From a virus: a stretch of 23,305 nucleotides of DNA. Below the pieces are notes generated by a model. The model did no database searches and was not told the origin of the DNA. It saw nothing but the letters and a program-made list of their open reading frames with translations. Each line of letters starts with the position of its first letter. Position 1 is the first letter of the stretch. Of the stretch, positions 5,049-22,200 are shown one piece after another. The translations under genes were made by a program, and so were the position numbers. The DNA is taken from UHGV virus genome UHGV-0105868, one strand, 5' to 3'.

Positions 5049-5275
5049 TGGCTGATGCAATGGATCTCGTACAGCAGCGCGTTGAAGAAGAACGCCAGCG
5101 CCATATCCGTGCTGCCCGTGCCAAAACGCCGGGCGTGTCCCGCGTGCTTTGCGTTGAGTGTGAAGCGCCAATTCCGCCAGCACGCCGTCGTGCCATACCG
5201 GGTGTGCAGCTTTGCATTACCTGTCAGGAAATCGCAGAGCTGAAAGGCAAACATTACAACGGAGGTGCTGTATGA
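5048..5275 (+). CDS. DksA/TraR-family C4 zinc-finger protein
   Basis: 75 aa with CVECEAPIP…-(17 aa)-…CITC, the four-Cys zinc finger typical of phage TraR-like proteins. Confidence 0.8.
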   Translation: MADAMDLVQQRVEEERQRHIRAARAKTPGVSRVLCVECEAPIPPARRRAIPGVQLCITCQEIAELKGKHYNGGAV

Positions 5276-6129
5276 GCACCATCCTGAAATGGGCGGGAAA
5301 TAAAACCGCCATAATGTCCGAACTGAAAAAGCATCTTCCTGCTGGCCCGCGACTGGTTGAACCTTTCGCGGGTTCCTGTGCAGTGATGATGGAGACGGAT
5401 TACCCCAGCTATCTTGTTGCGGATATTAATCCTGATTTAATCAACCTCTATAAAAAGGTTGCTGCTGATTGTGAGGCGTTTATATCTCGTGCCAGAGCTT
5501 TATTTGAGGACGCAAACAGGGAGGTGACTTATTACAACATAAGGTAGGAGTTTAATTACTCAACTGAAATTACTGATTTCATGAAAGCGGTATATTTCCT
5601 GTATCTCAATCGTCACGGTTACCGTGGGTTATGTCGTTATAACAAGAGCGGGCATTTCAACATTCCATACGGTAATTATAAAAATCCGTATTTCCCTGAA
5701 AAAGAAATTCGCGCATTTGCAGAGAAAGCCCAGCGAGCAACGTTTATCTGCGCCAGCTTTGATGAAACGCTGGCGATGCTGCAGGTGGGGGATGTGGTGT
5801 ATTGCGATCCGCCTTATGACGGTACGTTTTCCGGTTATCACACTGACGGCTTCACTGAAGATGACCAGTATCACCTGGCATCCGTTCTTGAACATCGGTC
5901 ATCAGAAGGACATCCGGTCATTGTTTCTAATAGTGACACATCCCTGATCCGTTCGCTGTATCGCAATTTCACTCACCACTACATCAAGGCAAAACGCAGC
6001 ATTGGCGTGTCAGCTGGCGAGAGTAAATCTGCAACAGAAATCATCGCTGTTTCTGGGGCGCGCTGCTGGGTGGGATTTGATCCTTCGCGTGGCGTGGATA
6101 GTTCTGCCGTGTACGGAGTGCGTGCATGA
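5272..6129 (+). pseudogene. dam: Dam-type N6-adenine DNA methyltransferase interrupted by an in-frame amber codon (TAG at 5545..5547)
   Basis: N-terminal part has …ILKWAGNK… and EPFAGS (motif I). C-terminal part has …[15 protein letters not shown]… and DPPY (motif IV). The two track ORFs (ending 5547, starting 5581) are in the same frame. Reading through the TAG gives [27 protein letters not shown], which aligns with E. coli Dam (…YYQFREEFNKSQDPFRRAVLFLYLNR…) with the stop at a Glu position. GGAGG RBS before 5272. Confidence 0.8.
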
Positions 6130-8540
6130 GCCATGCTGATATGAACAACTGCAGCGGCTTTAACGAGGCCGCCGCAGCATTCTCATGGAACAGCCCGAAA
6201 AAGGCTATTAACCCTTATCTGGACCCGGCGGAAGTTGCGCCGGTTTCTGCGCTTTCAAACCTGATCACTCTGTACGCTGTCGATAACGAGCAGGAACAAC
6301 TGCGTCGCGAGGCACTGAGTGATCAGGTCTGGGAGCGTTATTTCTTTAATGAATCCCGTGATCCTGTTCACCGCGAAATGGAGCAGGATAAGCTCATTAG
6401 CCGGGCAAAGCTGGCGCATGAGCAGCAGCGTTTTAATCCAGATATGGTCATTCTGGCGGACGTCAATGCCCAGCCTTCCCATATCAGCAAGCCGCTGATG
6501 CAACGTATTGAATACTTCAGCAGCCTGGGCAGGCCAAAGGCTTATTCCCGCTATTTGCGTGAGACGATTAAGCCATGTCTGGAACGACTGGAGCATGTAC
6601 GCGACTGTCAGCTATCCACTTCTTTTCGCTTTATGGCAAGCCATGAAGGGCTGGACGGCCTGCTGATCCTGCCTGAAATGAGTCAGGATCAGGTGAAGCG
6701 CCTGTCTACCCTTGTCGCCGCGCATATGAGCATGTGCCTTGATGCAGCTTGTGGTGATTTGTATGCCACCGATGACGTTAAGCCAGAAGAAATCCGCAAG
6801 ACATGGGAAAAGGTGGCAGCGGAAACCCTGCGTCTGGATGTTATCCCGCCTGCGTTTGAGCAACTCCGTCGGAAAAGAAACCGCCGTAAACCCGTGCCTT
6901 ATGAACTCATTCCGGGTTCGCTGGCGCGTATGTTATGCGCCGACTGGTGGTATCGGAAATTATGGAAGATGCGTTGCGAATGGCGGGAAGAGCAGTTGCG
7001 TGCTGTTTGCCTGGTCAGCAAAAAAGCATCTCCCTATGTCAGCTATGAAGCCGTGATGCATAAACGTGAGCAGCGCCGTAAGTCGCTGGAGTTTTTCCGT
7101 TCTCATGAACTGGTGAACGAAGACGGCGACACGCTGGATATGGAAGACGTGGTAAACGCCAGCAGCAGCAACCCTGCGCATCGCCGCAATGAGATGATGG
7201 CCTGTGTTAAAGGTCTGGAGCTTATCGCGGAAATGCGCGGTGACTGCGCCGTTTTCTACACCATCACCTGTCCGTCACGTTTCCATTCCACGCTAAATAA
7301 CGGCAGGCCCAACCCGACCTGGACAAATGCGACGGTAAGACAAAGCAGTGATTATCTGGTCGGTATGTTTGCTGCATTTCGTAAGGCGATGCACAAAGCC
7401 GGATTGCGCTGGTATGGCGTGCGGGTGGCTGAGCCGCATCATGACGGTACAGTTCACTGGCACCTGTTGTGTTTTATGCGCAAAAAAGATCGCCGCGCCA
7501 TTACTGCTTTGTTGCGTAAGTTTGCCATTCGTGAAGACCGCGAGGAGCTGGGTAATAACACGGGACCACGCTTTAAGTCTGAGCTGATAAACCCGCGCAA
7601 AGGTACGCCAACAAGCTACATCGCGAAATACATCAGTAAGAACATTGACGGGCGTGGTCTGGCTGGCGAGATCAGCAAGGAAACGGGTAAATCCCTGCGT
7701 GATAACGCTGAATACGTTAATGCCTGGGCGTCTCTGCATCGTGTTCAGCAATTCCGCTTCTTTGGCATTCCGGGGCGTCAGGCTTACCGTGAACTGCGAT
7801 TGCTGGCTGGTCAGGCGGCAAGGCAACAGGGGGACAAAAAAGCAGGTGCGCCGGTACTGGATAACCCGCGTCTTGATGCCATCCTGGCCGCTGCTGATGC
7901 TGGTTGTTTTGCCACCTACATCATGAAGCAGGGCGGCGTACTGGTTCCCCGCAAATATCACCTCATCAGAACCGCTTATGAAATCAACGAAGAGCCGACC
8001 GCCTATGGCGATCACGGCATTCGTATTTATGGCATCTGGTCACCCATTGCAGAGGGCAAGATCTGCACTCATGCGGTGAAGTGGAAAATGGTTCGTAAGG
8101 CCGTTGACATTCAGGAGGCGGCAGCCGACCAGGGCGCTTGCGCCCCTTGGACTCGTGGCAATAACTGTCCCCTTGCTGAAAATTTGTACCAACAAGGGAA
8201 AGACAAATCAGCTGATGGGGATACCAGAACGGATATCACCCGTATGGATGACAAGGAGTTGCACGATTACCTGCACAGTATGAACAAAAAAGAACGCCGG
8301 GAACTGGCTGCAAGGTTACGCCTGGTGAAACCGAAACGGCGTAGAGACTACAAACAGCGAATTACAGACCATCAACGACAGCAGCTCGTCTATGAACTGA
8401 AGTCCAGAGGATTTGATGGCAGCGAGAAAGAGGTCGATTTACTCCTTCGCGGCGGCAGTATTCCGTCAGGAGCAGGCCTGCGTATCTTCTATCGGAACCA
8501 GCGTTTGCAGGAAGATGATAAGTGGCGGGATCTGTATTAA
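6126..8540 (+). CDS. A: Replication initiation protein A (rolling-circle nicking endonuclease, P2 gpA-like)
   Basis: 804 aa containing …[13 protein letters not shown]… (HxH metal motif) and …YIAKYISKN… (catalytic Tyr region). Start overlaps the dam stop (ATGA). Confidence 0.9.
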
Positions 8541-8632
8541 TTACGCGGGTTAACAATTCGTGCTCTTAATAATACCAGGCATATCAGGCTGATGAACGTA
8601 AAAAAACGTTTTACATCAGTAAGATTATTATA

Positions 8633-8652
8633 TACTGTAAATATAAACAGTG
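8633..8652 (+). promoter_or_regulatory. LexA (SOS) box TACTGTAAATATAAACAGTG overlapping a putative promoter
   Basis: CTGT-N8-ACAG with an AT-rich spacer, close to the consensus TACTGTATATATATACAGTA. Lies about 45 bp upstream of the 8694 start. Placement matches the LexA-controlled tum promoter of phage 186. Confidence 0.6.
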
Positions 8653-8693: not shown

Positions 8694-8882
8694 ATGCAGG
8701 ACTATTTTTTGGAGTCTTTGAAGCTCCAGCGCATTGATTTTTTTCTTAAGCTTGTAGCGGCTAGTGAGTGTAGTGATGAAGAGAAGGGGCTGGCTCTGCA
8801 GTGGGTTTCTGAATTGACTGATGAACTCATGGCAAAAATCAGAAGCCACGAATACAACCGCTCAATGGATGTCATCAGCTGA
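8694..8882 (+). CDS. Small SOS-regulated protein (62 aa) at the tum antirepressor position
   Basis: ATG preceded by AGGAGG. Directly downstream of the LexA box. The protein itself is not recognised; the antirepressor role is inferred from position only. Confidence 0.45.
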   Translation: MQDYFLESLKLQRIDFFLKLVAASECSDEEKGLALQWVSELTDELMAKIRSHEYNRSMDVIS

Positions 8883-8892
8883 GGTGACTTTT

Positions 8893-9126
8893 ATGCGCAT
8901 TGAAATAATGATCGATAAAGAGCAGAAAATTAGCCAGTCTACCCTGGACGCCCTTGAATCCGAGCTTTACCGCAATCTGCGCCCCCTGTATCCCAAAACG
9001 GTAATTCGTATCCGCAAAGGTAGCTCTAACGGTGTGGAACTGACCGGACTGCAACTGGACGAAGAAAGAAAACAAGTGATGAAAATTATGCAGAAGGTGT
9101 GGGAAGACGACAGCTGGCTGCATTAA
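8893..9126 (+). CDS. DinI-like protein
   Basis: 77 aa, MRIEIMIDKEQKISQSTLDALESELYRNL…KVWEDDSWLH, resembling E. coli DinI (MRIEVTIAK…ALAGELSRR…ETWESADDWFVSE) in length and pattern. RBS GAGGTG. Confidence 0.75.
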   Translation: MRIEIMIDKEQKISQSTLDALESELYRNLRPLYPKTVIRIRKGSSNGVELTGLQLDEERKQVMKIMQKVWEDDSWLH

Positions 9127-9631
9127 GAAACGTTGCTGGCGTCTGAACTTGCTTCTGGCGTCAGCAAGGTTGAACAACGAGCTGTGCGAGGCGTTAGCCA
9201 TCTGATCAAAAGACATCAAATATCATATTGTATATCGTGGTTAAACGCTGGAAACAATCATTCCCGGTCAGAGGGGCTTCTTTCAATGTCCAAAAGAGTG
9301 AGATAGAGGATACAGGATGGGAAGAGCTTATGATGATTGTTCTTGGATTGACTTGGAATATTTGATGTCCATTATCTAATGGACTTGGTCTTGATAGTTA
9401 TCACGAAAGAGGAAGCCAACGTCATGTATTTGAAGAGTATCTCTTACCTTTTGATTAATTATTGTCCAAGTTTTTCAAAAGCTTCTTATCTGGCGGTCGA
9501 TACATGATTTACTGTTGGATATGGTATTTAAAATTAATCTTTACACTGTGGTATATGCAGAATAGGATATTATCAATACAATCAAACCGTTTTCATACGG
9601 TTGTTAATATTGCAATGTTATAGGTAATGTC

Positions 9632-10750
9632 ATGTATCTTTTCAAGTATTACCGTCCGGACTTCTTCTTCGAGAAAGCTATTCGTTATAATGAATTATAT
9701 TTTTCCGCTCCTGCGCAATTGAATGATCCTAATGATCTCAATATAGATTATCGTTTTGATAATAAATTGAAATTATGGGATATTTTATTGCGTTCTCCTT
9801 GCGATAAATCCTATGAAAATTTGAGTCACATATTAGATTTGAGTAATTTGAAGATACATAAGGGATTGAATCGTATTTTTAGAGGAAAAAAAATAAAAAG
9901 TAGCATTGAGTCATTAGATAGCCTGTTTGACTCACACGTTGATGAGATACGTAAGATCATAAATGATGGTTTACTACCTATCAATGTGATTAATTCCGCT
10001 ATTTATGGGAATATTCCTGAACCACGCCAATTTTTGGTCTCACTTTGCGAGAACAGTATCAAAGAAAGGTTGTATAGGAAAATAGTTCCTGCAGTATTCA
10101 GTGTGTCATTTTCAGCTAATGCGTTAGATCGTATGATGTGGGCGCATTATGCTGCAGGCTTTAGTGGTTGTGTTGTGATTTATGAAACGCAGGATTTTAA
10201 TATTAATGGCGTGCCACATCCTGGAATGAAGCTAAGAGAAAATTTATTTTCATCAGATAAATTTAATTTTCCAGTTAAGCAAATAAAATATAGTAATCAG
10301 GCTAAAGAGGTTTCACTTCTAGACCCAAGCGCAAATGTTGCAGAGTTATTTTTAACTAAAAATAGATTTTGGAGATATGAAGCTGAATATCGAATGTTTA
10401 TTCCAGAGGCAAATGCAGGAATAGGGAGTGAGCGGCATGTTCAAAGACGCGTAAATCGAAATATTGGACATATTTTTCATCATGATGCTAATGTTGTTAA
10501 AGGGATCATTTTTGGTCCTAGAATGTGTGAAATGAAAAAAGAAAGCATATGGAATTGTATCAAGTCAAATATGGAGAATTCAAATTCAACAATATGTTAT
10601 TTTTTTGACTCTGAGTTATCAGCATCAGGAAAGATTACTATTTCAAAAGGGCAACGAGCGGAAAAAATGAAAAATTTCCCTTTGTTCAGGAACAAGTTAA
10701 GTCAGACGGAAATGGCTAAAGTTTTGAAGGAAATTGGCATTACGAACTAA
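9632..10750 (+). CDS. AT-rich cargo protein (372 aa) with DUF2971-like N-terminal motif; candidate defence / abortive-infection gene
   Basis: Long ORF in a visibly AT-rich region, unlike the GC-richer phage backbone. N-terminus LFKYYRPDFFFEKAIRYNELYFSAPAQLNDPNDL and a later …SFSANALDRMMWAHYAAGFSGCVVIY… resemble the DUF2971 family signature as I remember it. Function unknown. Confidence 0.8.
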   Translation: MYLFKYYRPDFFFEKAIRYNELYFSAPAQLNDPNDLNIDYRFDNKLKLWDILLRSPCDKSYENLSHILDLSNLKIHKGLNRIFRGKKIKSSIESLDSLFDSHVDEIRKIINDGLLPINVINSAIYGNIPEPRQFLVSLCENSIKERLYRKIVPAVFSVSFSANALDRMMWAHYAAGFSGCVVIYETQDFNINGVPHPGMKLRENLFSSDKFNFPVKQIKYSNQAKEVSLLDPSANVAELFLTKNRFWRYEAEYRMFIPEANAGIGSERHVQRRVNRNIGHIFHHDANVVKGIIFGPRMCEMKKESIWNCIKSNMENSNSTICYFFDSELSASGKITISKGQRAEKMKNFPLFRNKLSQTEMAKVLKEIGITN

Positions 10751-10816
10751 CCTAACAACAGTGCATGCCTATGCTGCCTGAATTTGCATGACCGTTTGAG
10801 GATCGTTTTTGCTAAG

Positions 10817-10840
10817 GCCCGCCAGAACTGGCGGGCTTTT
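10817..10840 (+). terminator. Rho-independent terminator (gcccgcc-agaact-ggcgggc-TTTT)
   Basis: 7-bp GC stem, 6-nt loop and a T-run, 66 bp downstream of the 9632..10750 stop. Confidence 0.6.
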
Positions 10841-10885
10841 GCGTGGATCAGGCACCTGCATGAAAACCACTACACAAAGCGGGCA

Positions 10886-11005: not shown

Positions 11006-12679
11006 ATGGAAAAATATCAAGATGAGGAATATGTAGACGATTTAACTGAGCGTGTTTTTCTCATTAAGCAACAACTGGAAGCGGGAAAACTAAAAATAGC
11101 TCATCATCTTGTAGAAGGTTTTATTGAAAGTTTTAAAAGAATAAGGCTGCGACAGGATGGTAAAGTTGACCCTTCTACTGTTGATGGCAGAATAAGGGCT
11201 ATGGGAGCAGCGGTTAATCACTTTTTAGAAAGAGAAGATATAAAAAACAAATACTCTATTCAGGACTTGCAAAGTTCTTACTTTAATATTCTTTTTAGTA
11301 ATTTTGGCGAGTTGTTTTATCTGATGAAAAAAACTAATGCAACGCCACATAAAGCATCAAGTTTTTTTTCTCAACAAGAAGAATATGTTAAGCAAATAGA
11401 AGGTGTTTTTCCTGAGTTATATAATCAGGTAATAGAGTTTTGGCAGGTAACATCCGATATTGGTGTAATACATTTGCAGGATGGTTCTCAGTTTAAAGCT
11501 AATTTTTCTGGTGACTTATTTCCTGCATTTGATGAGAATGCTGTCTCTATTGCAGGGTTGTATGTTGATACTATTTCACTTCCATGTCCTATATTAAGAG
11601 TCGGTCGTCTCTATGAAAAGTCAGATAAGGCTGAGTTTACAAGGATACTTCTGAAGCATGTCCTAACATGTATGACATATAAAGAAGTAGCGCTTGAAGA
11701 TATAGAGCCAGCAATAGTATTAATTTTGCCGGATAGAAGAGATTTTGAAACTGAGAGCAAAAAAAATTTGATGAGTTTTTGTGAGCCTTATGCTCTGACT
11801 CATGCGCAATATCTCTATGATCGACGGTTCGAAAGCTACGATGAATTTCAAGATTTTAGTTATTCGATGAATGATATTGATGCTGTTCTTAAAAATATTA
11901 AGAGAGCAGATAGACTTATTTTTGATACAGCATGGGGGCTAAATCCAAAAACTCAATTAGAAAAACTACTATCTGATAAAAAAAGAATATCACGTAATGT
12001 TGTTGGTGATCATGCTGGAATGGAGGTTTTCCTTTCCTGCATTGGAAGAATGCCGCAAGCCTATTCAGCAAAATGTAATGCACAAGAACTTGGTAGTACT
12101 CCATATATAAATGCAGACACATCTTGGCTCTATTATACTTGGCTTATTGAGTACGAATCTCTTAATTTTGATGTCAATGATATTGAACTAAAAAATTTGC
12201 ATATGGTTCATGCGTTATCTGCTGGTATGCAAGATGGTTTTTCATGGTTAGGAAATGTACCGGTCAATAAAATAATTGAGTTGAGACGTAACAAATTGAT
12301 GGAGGATGTAAGATCCATCTTATCAAATGGTGTTGACTCTTTAATCAATTCTTCGGCAGAGAGCTTTTCGAGGACAACGCAAAAAGTAATTGATAATGTA
12401 GACCGGGCTTTTATTGAACATCAAAGGATTCTTGCAAAAGCCCAAAAAGAGAAATTGAGAATTTACGGACTGGATGTCCTACCATGTATCGCAAATGGTG
12501 CTATAGCAATTGCTGGAGCGCTGACTGGCAATACTACTTTAGCGGCGTTAAGTGCAGGCCTTGGAGTAATAGGTATTCCGAGTATTAGTGATATCAAATC
12601 TAAATTTAAGCAGAGGCAAGAGAAGCTTGATGCCTATCAACGTTCTGTTACAGGTATACTCTTTAGCCATAAATCTTAA
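11006..12679 (+). CDS. AT-rich cargo protein (557 aa), unknown function, C-terminal hydrophobic Gly/Ala-rich segment; candidate defence / abortive-infection effector
   Basis: Long AT-rich ORF with a GGAG RBS. No motif recognised in the mostly soluble-looking body. Near the C-terminus is a hydrophobic stretch, …LPCIANGAIAIAGALTGNTTLAALSAGLGVIGIPSI…, long enough for one or two membrane helices. Confidence 0.8.
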   Translation: MEKYQDEEYVDDLTERVFLIKQQLEAGKLKIAHHLVEGFIESFKRIRLRQDGKVDPSTVDGRIRAMGAAVNHFLEREDIKNKYSIQDLQSSYFNILFSNFGELFYLMKKTNATPHKASSFFSQQEEYVKQIEGVFPELYNQVIEFWQVTSDIGVIHLQDGSQFKANFSGDLFPAFDENAVSIAGLYVDTISLPCPILRVGRLYEKSDKAEFTRILLKHVLTCMTYKEVALEDIEPAIVLILPDRRDFETESKKNLMSFCEPYALTHAQYLYDRRFESYDEFQDFSYSMNDIDAVLKNIKRADRLIFDTAWGLNPKTQLEKLLSDKKRISRNVVGDHAGMEVFLSCIGRMPQAYSAKCNAQELGSTPYINADTSWLYYTWLIEYESLNFDVNDIELKNLHMVHALSAGMQDGFSWLGNVPVNKIIELRRNKLMEDVRSILSNGVDSLINSSAESFSRTTQKVIDNVDRAFIEHQRILAKAQKEKLRIYGLDVLPCIANGAIAIAGALTGNTTLAALSAGLGVIGIPSISDIKSKFKQRQEKLDAYQRSVTGILFSHKS

Positions 12680-12710: not shown

Positions 12711-13742
12711 TTATATGAAACTGTATGGCATGAATTTTATTATGTCATCTTTGAGCCATTTATTGAGTTCTTCTATTCTGTTTTGTAGCGGTATCAATTC
12801 ATTACGCATAAAAACCTTACTAGCCTTCTCCACATCCCCAAATCCCCCAACATTATTCGGTATTATCCCCATCATTTGCGGCGGCACTCGGTGTGCTGCC
12901 ATCATGTCATCCCGGCTCACGTTCTTGATATTCAAAAATTCATCCTTTGCCGCGACTTCTGACAGAGGAATAATCTGAAGCCCGTCCTTTTTGCCGTTAG
13001 GCGAGTACATAAACAGGTTGCGGAAGTTGCCAGGGCCTTTGGCGCTTTTCATCGCATTGCGGAGGTTGTTCACGTCCTCCTGGTTCTGCGCGGCATCGGT
13101 CATGTACATGATGAAGCCAGCATGACTGCCGTTAATGTAATACTTTCGGCGGAACAGCGTGGCGGACTCGTTGAGCAGGGCTGACGGAATGGCAGAAAGA
13201 TAACCGGGCAGGCCGTAGATCTCCTGGTTGATGTCCGGTTCCATCAGATGAAAGATGCTGCCTTTCGTGAACTGATATGGCTGCGTGGTCATACCGTATT
13301 GCACAAACCAGTAGGTATCCAGGTCTAACCCGCGTCGGGTGTATTTTGCCAGGGCAGGTTCAAGGGCGATAACTTCACCGAAGCGGTTCGTGCGTTTCTC
13401 CAGGTAGGCGTTACCAAATACCAGATAGTCCTGAACAAAACGCGAAAAAGCCTGCTGGCTGAGCAGCGGGTGAGGGATGTAGGTGCTGGTCAGAATGTTG
13501 CACTTTACTGCAATCGGGGAACTATGATGCACGGCAGCGCGGAAGGTGCGCGCCAGTCCGTCAAAGCTGACGGGCGGTTCATACCAGCGGTCCATCTGTA
13601 CGCATTCCACATAATCCAGCAGTTCTCGGCGGTCCAGAACAGGAACGGGATCGCCGAAGCTGAATGCTTCGGCTGTAGTTTGACTTTTAAGCTGGATCTG
13701 TTTCGTCGCCGCAGCGCGGTTCTTCTTACTCTTTCCCATCAA
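12711..13742 (-). CDS. Q: Portal protein (P2 gpQ-like)
   Basis: 343 aa at the P2 gene Q position and orientation (3' end toward cos, divergent from the head genes). Confidence 0.85.
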   Translation of the reverse strand: MMGKSKKNRAAATKQIQLKSQTTAEAFSFGDPVPVLDRRELLDYVECVQMDRWYEPPVSFDGLARTFRAAVHHSSPIAVKCNILTSTYIPHPLLSQQAFSRFVQDYLVFGNAYLEKRTNRFGEVIALEPALAKYTRRGLDLDTYWFVQYGMTTQPYQFTKGSIFHLMEPDINQEIYGLPGYLSAIPSALLNESATLFRRKYYINGSHAGFIMYMTDAAQNQEDVNNLRNAMKSAKGPGNFRNLFMYSPNGKKDGLQIIPLSEVAAKDEFLNIKNVSRDDMMAAHRVPPQMMGIIPNNVGGFGDVEKASKVFMRNELIPLQNRIEELNKWLKDDIIKFMPYSFI

Positions 13743-15343
13743 AAAATCTCCACAATATTGCTGGTATTGGCGGATTCGCCCTGCAGCGGTTCGTTAAACA
13801 GTGCGTGCATCGTTGCCCAGGCCAGATCGGCGTGGCTGGCTTCTTCGCTGCGGCTGGCTTCATAGGTCGGGCGGTTGCCACTGGCGGTGGTGGCGCGACG
13901 GATTGCCATAAAGGACTGCGCTATGTCGGTGTGTCCGGCGTCAAACTCCAGACGGCGGTGGCTGATAATGTCGTAGGCCTTGAGTACCAGGGCGTTTTTA
14001 ACGTTGGGGTTGTAGACAAACTCCCGGACGGCAGGAAAAAACGCTTTCACGTTCTCGTAAACCCCGTGACCAACGCCGGTTGAGTCGATACCGATATAGG
14101 TCACGTTGTACTGTTCGGTCAGTTTTTTGATGGCGTCAGCCTGGGCGCGGAAGTCCATCCCGCGCCACTGGTGACGCTCAAGAATGCGGAACTTACCACC
14201 CGGCACGGCTGGCGGTGCCACCACCACGCATCCGGCGCTGTCGCCGTTTTGCGTGCCTTTTGCCGGGTCATAACCGATCCACACTTCGCGCCAGCCAAAC
14301 GGGCGCAGCGCCAGTGCATGAAAGTCGGTCCAGACTTCCCAACTGTCCACCATGCACGCCTGCAGCTCGCTGAGCGGAAACACGGACGCGAGATCGTCCA
14401 CAAACTCGCACATCAGCAGGTTCTGGTATTCATCCGGGCTGTACTCCATGCGTAGCTGGTCGAGGTCGAACAGGTTACAGCCGCCGCGTACCGCATCTTC
14501 CACGGTGACTATCTGGCGGTATTGCCCGTCTGCGCACAGCAGGCCGGGGGCCAGATTGCTGTGGGACAGGTCGATGTCCACCTTATCGGCTTTGTTGCGC
14601 CCACGGTTGAACAGCGCACCGGACCAGAACGGATAAGCACTGTGTGTCAGACTGGATGGCGTGGAAAAATAGGTTTGTCGCCATTTTTTGTGAATAGCCA
14701 TACCGGAAGCCACTTTGCGCAGCTCCTGAAATTTCGGTATCCAGAAATATTCATCCAGATACAGGTTGCCGTGATAACTCTGGGCCGTGCGGGCATTGGT
14801 GCCGAGGAAATACAGTGTGGCCCCGTTGGGAAGCACCATCGGATCGCCTTTCAGCTCCACCTCTACTTCTTTGGCGAAGTCGATGATGTACTGTTTAAAG
14901 ACGTGGGCCTGTGCCTTACTGGCGGAAAGGAAAATCTGGTTACGTCCGGTAAGCAGGGCGTCAATCAGGGCTTCACGGGCAAAGTAAAAGGTCGCGCCGA
15001 TCTGGCGTGACTTCAGCAGGTTGCGGATGCGGTTGGTTTTTCCGGCTTCCCACCAGTGGCGCTGGTAGTTGAACATGGAGGAATGGAAAATTTCTTCCAG
15101 CTTCTCAATCTGTTCATCGGTGAAAACGTTCTTTTCCGGCTGACGGCGTGGGCCTTTGTTGCGGTTGGCGACGTTAGGGTTTAAGTCGGCTTCGTTGCCG
15201 CCATTGTTAAACTTGCCGATCCGCGCATGGCGCTCCGACTGGCGCGCCAGCAGGTCAATCTCTTTGAAATCTTTCCCTTCTTTGTGCTCCTTCATAATGA
15301 GCTGGCAGTAGCGTGCGGCGGTGGTGAGCTGCATCTGATCCAC
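13739..15343 (-). CDS. P: Terminase large subunit (P2 gpP-like ATPase/nuclease)
   Basis: 534 aa with a Walker-A-like …LLKSRQIGATFYFA… region. Start overlaps the Q stop. Start is GTG or a nearby ATG. Confidence 0.85.
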   Translation of the reverse strand: MDQMQLTTAARYCQLIMKEHKEGKDFKEIDLLARQSERHARIGKFNNGGNEADLNPNVANRNKGPRRQPEKNVFTDEQIEKLEEIFHSSMFNYQRHWWEAGKTNRIRNLLKSRQIGATFYFAREALIDALLTGRNQIFLSASKAQAHVFKQYIIDFAKEVEVELKGDPMVLPNGATLYFLGTNARTAQSYHGNLYLDEYFWIPKFQELRKVASGMAIHKKWRQTYFSTPSSLTHSAYPFWSGALFNRGRNKADKVDIDLSHSNLAPGLLCADGQYRQIVTVEDAVRGGCNLFDLDQLRMEYSPDEYQNLLMCEFVDDLASVFPLSELQACMVDSWEVWTDFHALALRPFGWREVWIGYDPAKGTQNGDSAGCVVVAPPAVPGGKFRILERHQWRGMDFRAQADAIKKLTEQYNVTYIGIDSTGVGHGVYENVKAFFPAVREFVYNPNVKNALVLKAYDIISHRRLEFDAGHTDIAQSFMAIRRATTASGNRPTYEASRSEEASHADLAWATMHALFNEPLQGESANTSNIVEIF

Positions 15344-18495: not shown

Positions 18496-18926
18496 ACCGG
18501 TTGCTGCTGGTTGTGCTGACGTTATTACTGGCGGCGCTGGGCTGGCAGACGTGGCGGCTGGCTGATGCCAGCCAGACCATCAGCATGCAGGCAGACGAGC
18601 TGCAGAGCAAAAGCCAGGCACTGGCAAAGAGCAATAGCCAGCTTATCAGCCTGTCCATTCTGACTGAAACCAATAACCGGGAGCAGGCGCGGCTCTATGC
18701 CGAAGCAGAACAGACCAGCACGCTGCTGAGACAACGACAACACCGGATCGAGGAACTGAAACGTGAGAACGAGGATTCGCAGCGCAGAAATCATCCCGTA
18801 TCGCGTGGAAGCCACCATTTTTCTCTATCCTGGACCGGAAGCAGAGCCGGTAATGGCAGCGGCAAAAGCCAGCCTGCAGAAGTACATCGCCAGTCAGACG
18901 CGTCTTGGTCGGGATATTCGCCGTAG
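18492..18926 (+). CDS. LysB-like i-spanin, apparently 3'-truncated and running out-of-frame into a gene J remnant
   Basis: N-terminal membrane anchor MNRLLLVVLTLLLAALGW followed by a coiled-coil-like Q/E/R-rich region. The last ~40 codons overlap the J-fragment frame and look non-native. No Rz1/LysC-like ORF seen. Confidence 0.5.
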   Translation: MNRLLLVVLTLLLAALGWQTWRLADASQTISMQADELQSKSQALAKSNSQLISLSILTETNNREQARLYAEAEQTSTLLRQRQHRIEELKRENEDSQRRNHPVSRGSHHFSLSWTGSRAGNGSGKSQPAEVHRQSDASWSGYSP

Positions 18927-21773: not shown

Positions 21774-22200
21774 TTAATACCCCAGCGCGATAAAACAACA
21801 ATCTTCGGTGCCCTCTCCGGATGGCGACCAGTTCTGAATACTGATATGCGTTCTGCTGGCAATACGCACATTCATCGCGGCATTGTAGCCAGATGTTCCA
21901 CGGTTTCCGGTCGCAAATAAGCCTGCATAGGGAAAAGCAAATGGTAAGGCATATCCAGCATCAGCTCCCTTTTGTGTTGCCACCGTTCCCCACTGCAACA
22001 TAAGTTTCACCGGGTTTCCTGTCGTCGCAATGCATGGAATGTAGATGTAGCCATTCCCTGACATCATTGACCTGAAGCTGTCTAAATCCAGTAACTTCGA
22101 GGCATTATCTGCTCCAACATCTCGTGTTGCGGCGGTCCCTAACTGGAGCGCATTTCGGAAGGCTGATACATCAGAAATATCAGCTCCATTACCCGCCGTG
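21774..22200 (-). pseudogene. Alternative tail-fibre C-terminal (receptor-binding) domain fragment on the opposite strand
   Basis: The minus-strand ORF encodes …FFTAGNGADISDVSAFRNALQLGTAATRDVGADNASKLLDLDSF…FIALGY, which parallels the H C-terminal region (…YLQLGEAAKRDVGTGNNQLPDMSAF…EAIGY). There is no constant N-terminal part. The track ORF's first ~35 codons are antisense to the D fragment. Confidence 0.6.

Follow-up and report, generated by a model that had tools for sequence, protein, structure and literature searches.

A mobile cassette in a 186/P2-type chromosomal prophage of E. coli encodes a 372-aa protein that is solidly assigned to the DUF2971 family by its sequence and is predicted, at the level of the fold, to share its core with the ADP-ribosyltransferases (ARTs). 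The prophage was analyzed as a stretch of 23,305 nucleotides (virus genome UHGV-0105868, hereafter the window), in which the gene occupies the interval between replication gene A (gpA) and the portal gene. We lean, with somewhat better than even confidence, toward reading this protein as an ART that acts alone against other phages by abortive infection, its gene being a moron in this gpA-portal hotspot. Both the family and the exact protein have already been catalogued; what is new is a further family member, and the gene reveals no new type of system.

Family membership and predicted fold of the 372-aa protein

The first-pass annotation had suggested a DUF2971 protein on the strength of two motifs, an N-terminal segment (LFKYYRPDFFFEKAIRYNELYFSAPAQLNDPNDL, which maps to aa 3-36) and a later one (MWAHYAAGFSGCVVIY, aa 169-184). 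A search with hmmscan returned DUF2971 (PF11185) as the sole Pfam family, with an E-value of 3.1e-4; the score, 22.4 bits, barely exceeds the gathering cutoff (22.0 bits). The match spans aa 169-255, in the central and C-terminal core of the protein, and covers the full 89-position model, but taken by itself it is marginal. Membership is secure because it does not depend on this score alone: the PADLOC model PDLC04990 of the class PDC-S31 aligns with aa 3-312 (E 3.1e-23), three other PDC-S31 models match with E-values from 1.4e-16 to 2.9e-5, PHROG 1762 aligns with aa 1-345 (E 4.7e-29), and PF11185 is matched by all 43 proteins (best E 7e-13) of a distant-relative alignment composed of the 372-aa protein and 42 relatives at 17-30% identity. 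No NCBIfam model matches the protein. The later of the two segments falls within the PF11185 model and was correctly recognized. The N-terminal one lies outside the model, and to that extent the Pfam match does not speak for it, but in the distant-relative alignment its residues N31 and D32 are invariant and E21 and F24 nearly so, and on this pattern of conservation the N-terminal motif is a true feature of the DUF2971 family, though one beyond the Pfam model.

The ORF at 9632-10750 is a real gene, given that it has 58 full-length homologues (~370 aa, with identity down to ~30% and PF11185 precomputed in most) and yields a confident AF2 model. A RefSeq entry of identical sequence, WP_021542067.1, bears the name 'DUF2971 domain-containing protein', and the exact sequence is carried by 425 contigs in public data. 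The profile of the close clade matches 6847 DUF2971 clusters (clustered at 50% identity), only 23 of which reach E<=1e-30 and belong to the protein's own ~370-aa clade. A tblastn search of PLSDB found DUF2971 members on hundreds of enterobacterial plasmids.

Structure prediction and a fold search, which had been proposed with the first-pass annotation, gave a confident AF2 model with DarT and Tpt1 as its nearest folds. The model, built from a 50-sequence alignment, has a mean pLDDT of 91.7 and a pTM of 0.85, with no segment below 50. In it, N-terminal strands (aa 2-7, 21-25, and 39-41) are followed by a ~105-residue insert of helices (aa 46-150), then by the beta-rich core (aa 154-294), and finally by a C-terminal alpha/beta subdomain (aa ~316-372); the last is not common to distant relatives, since profile matches to these stop at ~position 312. 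Structural comparison ranked M. tuberculosis DarT first (7yk3_C, 131 residues aligned, score 7.6), followed by Thermus DarT (7omv, 7.1), Tpt1 (7yw4, 6.8), Thermosipho DarTG (7omu, 6.6), and KptA (9ld3, 6.4). Lower in the ranking came the Rhs toxin TreX (rank 7, 6.3), E. coli DarT1 (8baq, rank 8, 6.2), SopF (rank 9, 5.5), TreTu (rank 12, 5.3), PARP15 (rank 15, 5.1), and Scabin (rank 19, 5.0). The ART superfamily accounts for ~27 of the top 60 structural matches, with many classical ART toxins standing below the top ranks, and sequence identity to the structural matches is 8-13%. These comparisons of a predicted model point, at the fold level only, to an ART core fold. Foldseek returned no match at E<=0.001 against the PDB and BFVD; phmmer with the protein and hmmsearch with the 50-sequence profile gave only noise against PDB sequences (best were albonoursin synthase, E 1.6, and peptide deformylase, E 2), and a Pfam scan of the 43 family members gave no link to DarT, AbiGi, or Tox-ART at E<=10.

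DUF2971 has been assigned bioinformatically to the ART superfamily, close to DarT and AbiGi, with a signature that consists of a strict Tyr in motif II and an ExE in motif III, motif I being poorly conserved (PMC12522546). A lactococcal DUF2971 protein, Aristaios, is a validated single-gene, Abi-like anti-phage system (PMC11381338, PMC13064643). The ART prediction and the defence phenotype of Aristaios have overtaken the earlier statement that no function is established for the family. The published signature is present in the 372-aa protein as Y173, within M-W-A-H-Y, and as E250-A-E252-Y-R254; the residues invariant in the distant-relative alignment are N31, D32, S159, W170, Y173, G179, Y220, K243, W247, E250, E252, and R254. 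Both alignments show E250-A-E252 without variation, and in the AF2 model it falls at a helix/strand junction (aa 245-259); E250 and E252 are candidates for the catalytic Glu of motif III. Candidate motif II consists of Y173 together with S157-V-S159 on strand 154-161, Y173 and S159 being the invariant residues; S157-V-S159 resembles the S-x-S element of R-S-E ARTs. The candidate for motif I, Lys5, is invariant only in the close clade, as is R8, and neither is conserved family-wide. Many DUF2971 members have a His at position 5 (an 'LYHYT' N-terminus).

The cassette and its prophage setting

The left part of the window carries, in order, an integrase gene, a 186-type CI gene (Phage_CI_repr plus Phage_CI_C), CII, Fil, a TraR/DksA-like gene, Dam, and gene A. 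These are followed by a 62-aa ORF, a DinI-like gene, two low-GC cargo genes, the portal gene, and the terminase gene (Table 1). A scan against Rfam found no RNA family anywhere in the window.

Table 1. Coordinates of the hotspot, the DUF2971 cassette, and the candidate motifs in the window
Feature	Position	Strand	Remarks
Replication gene A (Phage_GPA)	6126..8540	+	Left border of hotspot
LexA box CTGTAAATATAAACAG	8635..8650	+	Exact CTGT-N8-ACAG, upstream of 62-aa ORF and DinI-like gene
62-aa ORF, SOS module	8694..8882	+	phrog_698
DinI-like/Tum-like gene, SOS module	8893..9126	+	Pfam DinI, E 1.2e-22
DUF2971 cassette	9199..10759	+	1561 bp, 33.9% GC; missing from the otherwise collinear prophage of strain SCU-204
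Remnant of 86-aa small ORF	9206..9373	+	Two in-frame stop codons in the window
Sigma-70-like promoter TTTACA-N17-TAGGAT	9540..9568	+	~65 nt 5' of the DUF2971 ATG
DUF2971 gene	9632..10750	+	ATG start, 372 aa, 33.5% GC
K5, candidate motif	9644-9646	+	
S157-x-S159, candidate motif	10100-10108	+	
W170/H172/Y173, candidate motif	10139-10150	+	
E250-x-E252-x-R254, candidate motif	10379-10393	+	
Intrinsic-terminator hairpin GGCCCGCCAG-AACU-CUGGCGGGCU, then UUUU	10814..10843	+	Hairpin 10814-10839, z = -2.6
557-aa second cargo gene	11006..12679	+	35.5% GC; DitB-like
Portal gene (gpQ-like)	12711..13742	-	Right border of hotspot

The LexA box coincides in part with the -10 region of a promoter (-35 hexamer TTTACA at 8610-8615) and marks the SOS-controlled promoter of a Tum-like module. 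We take the LexA box and the DinI-like gene to be the counterpart of the Tum module of phage 186, which LexA represses and which encodes a DinI-like antirepressor. The DUF2971 gene had been described as lying next to an SOS-controlled module and in the position that old and tin occupy in P2, and both descriptions hold: the exact LexA box and the DinI-like gene stand directly upstream, and the stretch from gpA to gpQ is the hotspot of P2 near cos, where P2 has old and tin and other P2-like prophages have a variety of validated defence systems (PMC9122126). WP_021542067 is itself catalogued among the contents of the P2 hotspot, as 'hypothetical + DinI + DUF2971 + hypothetical' (PMC9122126, supplementary file 6; Rousset 2022), and was not found among the tested systems in the supplementary files of that study that were examined. 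An experimental test of the 372-aa protein was likewise not found in Vassallo 2022, in the main text of the DefensePredictor preprint, or in the 2026 P2/P4 study, nor was any test of the ~370-aa clade found in the literature searched.

The window and the prophage of E. coli p10A share 99.99% identity, but the window departs from that prophage in four places. It is without 1567 bp at position 15342, 2717 bp at position 18777, and 6905 bp at ~position 22192, all three blocks belonging to the late (morphogenesis and lysis) region, and a C to T change at 5545 turns Q92 of the phage Dam gene into a stop codon. If the sequence is natural, the prophage would be defective, with both cargo genes intact.

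Compared with the prophage of strain SCU-204, the cassette is a clean insertion, and its GC content contrasts with the ~52% of gpA and the portal gene. Among 5426 complete E. coli genomes, 27 carry it, each in a single chromosomal copy and always at the gpA-portal site. Homologues of the gene outside this site are singletons: those in lambdoid prophages stand in the interval from the replication genes to Q, in one case next to GIY-YIG and HNH genes, and others were found in an ICE that encodes a type IV secretion system, in an AlpA/DUF932 island, and in a Pseudomonas chromosome. The cassette is an independent, mobile, single-gene unit.

The -35 and an A/T-rich -10 of the promoter are kept 5' of homologues with 40-63% protein identity in unrelated elements (loci L002, L006, and L009), and the DUF2971 gene therefore travels with its own promoter. 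Conservation of the 430-bp leader across loci is limited to this promoter and the RBS. The 86-aa small ORF at the start of the cassette is intact in the ETEC cassette variant; it is not a required antitoxin, because it is a pseudogene in the window and part of it is deleted in ST95-32. An antitoxin, small protein, or RNA encoded in the leader was accordingly rejected as a candidate, only the promoter and RBS being conserved and the lone small ORF decayed. An antisense promoter-like site lies inside the DUF2971 gene at 9984-9956; such matches occur in the AT-rich region at the rate expected by chance (17 found against 15.9 expected).

Just 3' of the DUF2971 stop codon, the intrinsic terminator closes the transcription unit. 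This hairpin is an element of the phage backbone, found in SCU-204 shortly 3' of the DinI-like gene. As the cassette precedes the terminator of the LexA-controlled unit, and only weak terminator-like hairpins lie between the DinI/Tum-like gene and the DUF2971 gene, SOS read-through from the one into the other is possible.

Proposed mode of action and rival readings

A defence role for the 372-aa protein is plausible. In the scheme we favor, that of a stand-alone, abortive-infection-type ART, the lysogen would make the protein from its own conserved promoter and keep it inactive without an antitoxin, probably by auto-inhibition, for which the candidates are the helical insert (aa 46-150), the C-terminal subdomain particular to the clade, or both. 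The trigger, we infer, would be infection by a heterologous phage. Once activated, the enzyme would draw on NAD+ for the ADP-ribosylation of its target, for which nucleic acid is the likeliest candidate (either DNA or RNA, compare DarT and the Tpt1-type ARTs), with the outcome that phage transcription or replication is blocked and the infection aborted. A nucleic-acid target appears the most probable because the nearest folds are those of DarT and Tpt1 and because Aristaios interferes with phage transcription (PMC13064643).

A more elaborate version, which we regard as unlikely, would place an antitoxin-free, DarT/Tpt1-like nucleic-acid ART inside the LexA-controlled Tum unit, where basal expression from its own promoter would be boosted by SOS read-through and ADP-ribosylation would be coupled to DNA damage or prophage induction. 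Were this true, the protein could exclude superinfecting or co-resident phages just as the carrier prophage commits to lysis, and auto-inhibition by the helical insert or the C-terminal subdomain would represent a new form of control for a DarT-like toxin.

The same fold and the same defence role could also belong to an NAD+ glycohydrolase, which would deplete NAD+ in the manner of SIR2, TIR, and RES effectors. We rate this as unlikely to the same degree, since the best structural matches, DarT and Tpt1, are transferases that act on nucleic acids, and the effect reported for Aristaios, the one characterised member of the family, is specific to phage transcription, which suggests a defined target instead of metabolic collapse.

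The protein might, alternatively, serve the phage itself as a counter-defence or host-takeover ART, with a defence or transcription protein of the host as its substrate and SOS induction as one possible time of action. It could then resemble AcrIF11, an anti-CRISPR ART, or the Alt and Mod enzymes of T4. Phages are known to encode ARTs with anti-defence roles (PMC12421852), and the cassette, lying as it does behind the LexA-controlled DinI/Tum-like gene and ahead of the backbone terminator, could receive read-through. However, the gene's own promoter is conserved outside phages as well (in the ICE, the genomic island, and the Pseudomonas chromosome), near-identical copies are missing from 50,697 isolated phage genomes, PADLOC counts the clade among its phage-defence candidates, and Aristaios, the validated relative, is a defence protein; we consider a benefit to the phage slightly less probable than an NADase. 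Of similarly low probability is the notion that the fold has been kept without catalysis, in a non-enzymatic sensor or binding protein or one with another activity, so that the likeness to ARTs would be structural only. Against it stands the invariance of Y173, E250, E252, R254, S159, and W170 at 17-30% identity, which is typical of an active site, and the agreement of this pattern with the published assignment of ART motifs (PMC12522546).

The genes that follow the cassette bear on whether the protein acts alone. In all four E. coli loci inspected, the cassette comes directly after the DinI-like gene and is followed by one further, differing cargo gene, which encodes a 557-aa protein in the window and in p10A, an AIPR-family protein in ARL09/232, a DUF262 protein in ST95-32, and a DUF4145 protein in an ETEC isolate. 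The 557-aa protein has no match in Pfam, NCBIfam, or PHROG and a weak match to PADLOC DitB of the Aditi system (E 2.7e-10). Its gene is adjacent to the DUF2971 gene, on the same strand, and similarly low in GC, and one could picture the two as partners in an Aditi-like system, or the DUF2971 protein as a constant effector to which different sensors are joined, given that one further gene is present in each of the four loci. We find such a two-gene arrangement highly improbable. SCU-204 has the 557-aa gene at the same site without the cassette, and among the 17 genomes that carry this gene the cassette is present in five and missing from 12; unrelated genes take its place in other strains, and homologues elsewhere have no such neighbor. 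A 256-bp gap with the terminator hairpin separates the two genes, and PADLOC gives no DitA match for the 372-aa protein, so that of an Aditi pair only the neighbor finds a match, and a weak one. A two-gene system was thus rejected on the ground that the genes are distributed independently, and the gene for the 557-aa neighbor counts as a separate, uncharacterised gene of the hotspot. Because the 3' genes vary, the homologues are singletons, and the small ORF is pseudogenised, we regard the DUF2971 gene as a stand-alone gene with no obligatory partner.

Least credible is a lysogenic-conversion or virulence ART effector aimed at competing bacteria or at eukaryotic cells. In its favor, effectors are predicted to make up ~18% of the DUF2971 family, Legionella lpg1268 among them (PMC12522546), and some cassette carriers are clinical isolates, but there is no signal peptide, secretion-associated domain, or neighboring secretion or immunity gene, environmental, animal, and plant-associated strains carry the cassette too, and its location is a phage defence hotspot.

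The gene gains interest from the size of the family: DUF2971 is very large, and one member, from Lactococcus, is a proven defence protein. The E. coli prophage copy is tractable in a model host, with candidate catalytic residues (Y173, E250, and E252), a native promoter, and natural strain variants at hand. Through it one could settle whether the family consists of genuine ARTs, which targets its members modify, and how a toxin resembling DarT is silenced when no antitoxin is present.

Comparison with known systems

DarT is the nearest fold, and the differences from it are several. The 372-aa protein shares 8-13% identity with the DarT structures 7yk3, 7omv, and 8baq, contains a large insert of helices and an additional subdomain at the C-terminus, and carries Lys in place of His in motif I. 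No DarT model matches it: DUF4433, the Pfam family of DarT, gave no match at E<=10 for the protein and its 42 relatives, and the PADLOC DarT model none at E<=0.1. DarTG systems include the antitoxin DarG, whereas no DarG macrodomain or other antitoxin gene lies near the DUF2971 gene, the neighbors being the DinI-like gene and the 557-aa protein here and AIPR, DUF262, or DUF4145 genes in the other cassette contexts. Membership in DarTG was rejected, there being neither a DarG nor a match to a DarT model; on the evidence of the predicted structure, the protein plausibly works like DarT yet stands outside the DarT family. Tpt1/KptA differs in having an N-terminal RNA-binding lobe, which the 372-aa protein is without. 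The catalytic tetrad of Tpt1 is of the Arg/His type, from which the DUF2971-invariant Y173, E250-x-E252, S159, and W170 differ.

Within PADLOC, where four HMMs match it, the protein is a member of the candidate single-gene class PDC-S31, of which no mention was found in the literature searched. PDC systems in PADLOC-DB v2 are computational candidates, and membership therefore adds no functional proof. With Aristaios the kinship is that of a shared family, by description: Aristaios is a protein of 316 aa from the Lactococcus plasmid pUCCL641_199, whereas the 372-aa protein is ~56 aa longer and resides on an enterobacterial prophage and not on a Firmicutes plasmid. Searches of PLSDB by tblastn with the 372-aa protein and with a separate 316-aa relative returned no Lactococcus record.

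The carrier phage is 186-like (186-type CI, CII, Fil, and the LexA-controlled DinI/Tum-like gene) and in this is unlike P2 proper. P2 old and tin have no homology to the DUF2971 gene, sharing neither an ATPase or TOPRIM domain nor any other domain with the 372-aa protein. They do occupy the same slot, between gpA and gpQ next to cos, and the logic by which they act, exclusion of other phages by a prophage-encoded function, is the one that we propose for the DUF2971 gene.

Cargo beside the DUF2971 cassette

The second cargo gene encodes a 557-aa protein for which no match was found in Pfam, NCBIfam or PHROG. PADLOC returned a weak match to DitB of the Aditi system (E 2.7e-10, aa 195-452) and a still weaker one to LeoBC. 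The gene is carried by 17 of the 5426 complete E. coli genomes, and in other strains it stands alone in the same hotspot. This uncharacterised gene is itself a candidate for a role in defence. In E. coli ARL09/232 (L014), ST95-32 (L015) and an ETEC isolate (L016), the same DUF2971 cassette has an AIPR-family, a DUF262 or a DUF4145 gene, respectively, downstream of it in place of the 557-aa gene; these loci illustrate how the cos-proximal half of the hotspot is swapped in a modular fashion.

A search with the 316-aa DUF2971 relative P0176 identified DUF2971 genes in 571 PLSDB plasmid records, carried mostly by Klebsiella, Escherichia, Enterobacter and Salmonella. Members of the wider family are thus very frequent on plasmids of enterobacteria.

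Features of the window and of related cassette loci
Feature	Position	Strand	Details
Phage Dam gene	5272-6129	+	D12-class N6-adenine methyltransferase; Q92-stop at 5545
LexA box CTGTAAATATAAACAG and TTTACA promoter	8610-8650	+	LexA box overlaps promoter -10
62-aa ORF (phrog_698) and DinI-like gene	8694-9126	+	downstream of LexA box/promoter
Pseudogene remnant of 86-aa small ORF	9206-9373	+	68% identity over 56 aa; two in-frame stops
Terminator of SOS module	10814-10839
Second cargo gene	11006-12679	+	557 aa; low GC
Missing block 1	junction 15342		1567 bp; terminase 5' end, gpO scaffold, 5' part of capsid gene
Missing block 2	junction 18777		2717 bp; part of lysB, all of lysC, two tail/virion-morphogenesis genes, baseplate V and W, most of baseplate assembly protein gene
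Missing block 3	junction ~22190-22195		6905 bp; part of gp53-like gene, recombinase family gene, sheath, tube, tape measure, part of gene D
AIPR-family gene	L014 5809-7575		3' of DUF2971 cassette
DUF262 gene	L015 5662-7401		3' of DUF2971 cassette
DUF4145 gene	L016 5819-6517		3' of DUF2971 cassette

Integrity of the prophage

The prophage of E. coli p10A is 99.99% identical to the window, from which three internal blocks, all of them late-region sequence, are absent, with overlaps of 2-6 bp at the junctions. Should the sequence be natural, this is a defective prophage. The nonsense codon in the phage Dam gene arises from a C-to-T difference from p10A, and because of it only the C-terminal 182-aa ORF (5581-6129) appears in the ORF list.

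DUF2971 leader and SOS module

The leader of the DUF2971 gene holds the small-ORF remnant, an intact version of which (WP_126896364.1) precedes the DUF2971 gene of an ETEC strain; a 113-bp deletion falls within this leader in strain ST95-32. The cassette is inserted between the LexA-controlled genes and their terminator, so that SOS read-through into the DUF2971 gene from upstream is conceivable. The LexA box and promoter, together with the phrog_698 ORF and DinI-like gene, constitute an SOS induction module of the 186 Tum type.
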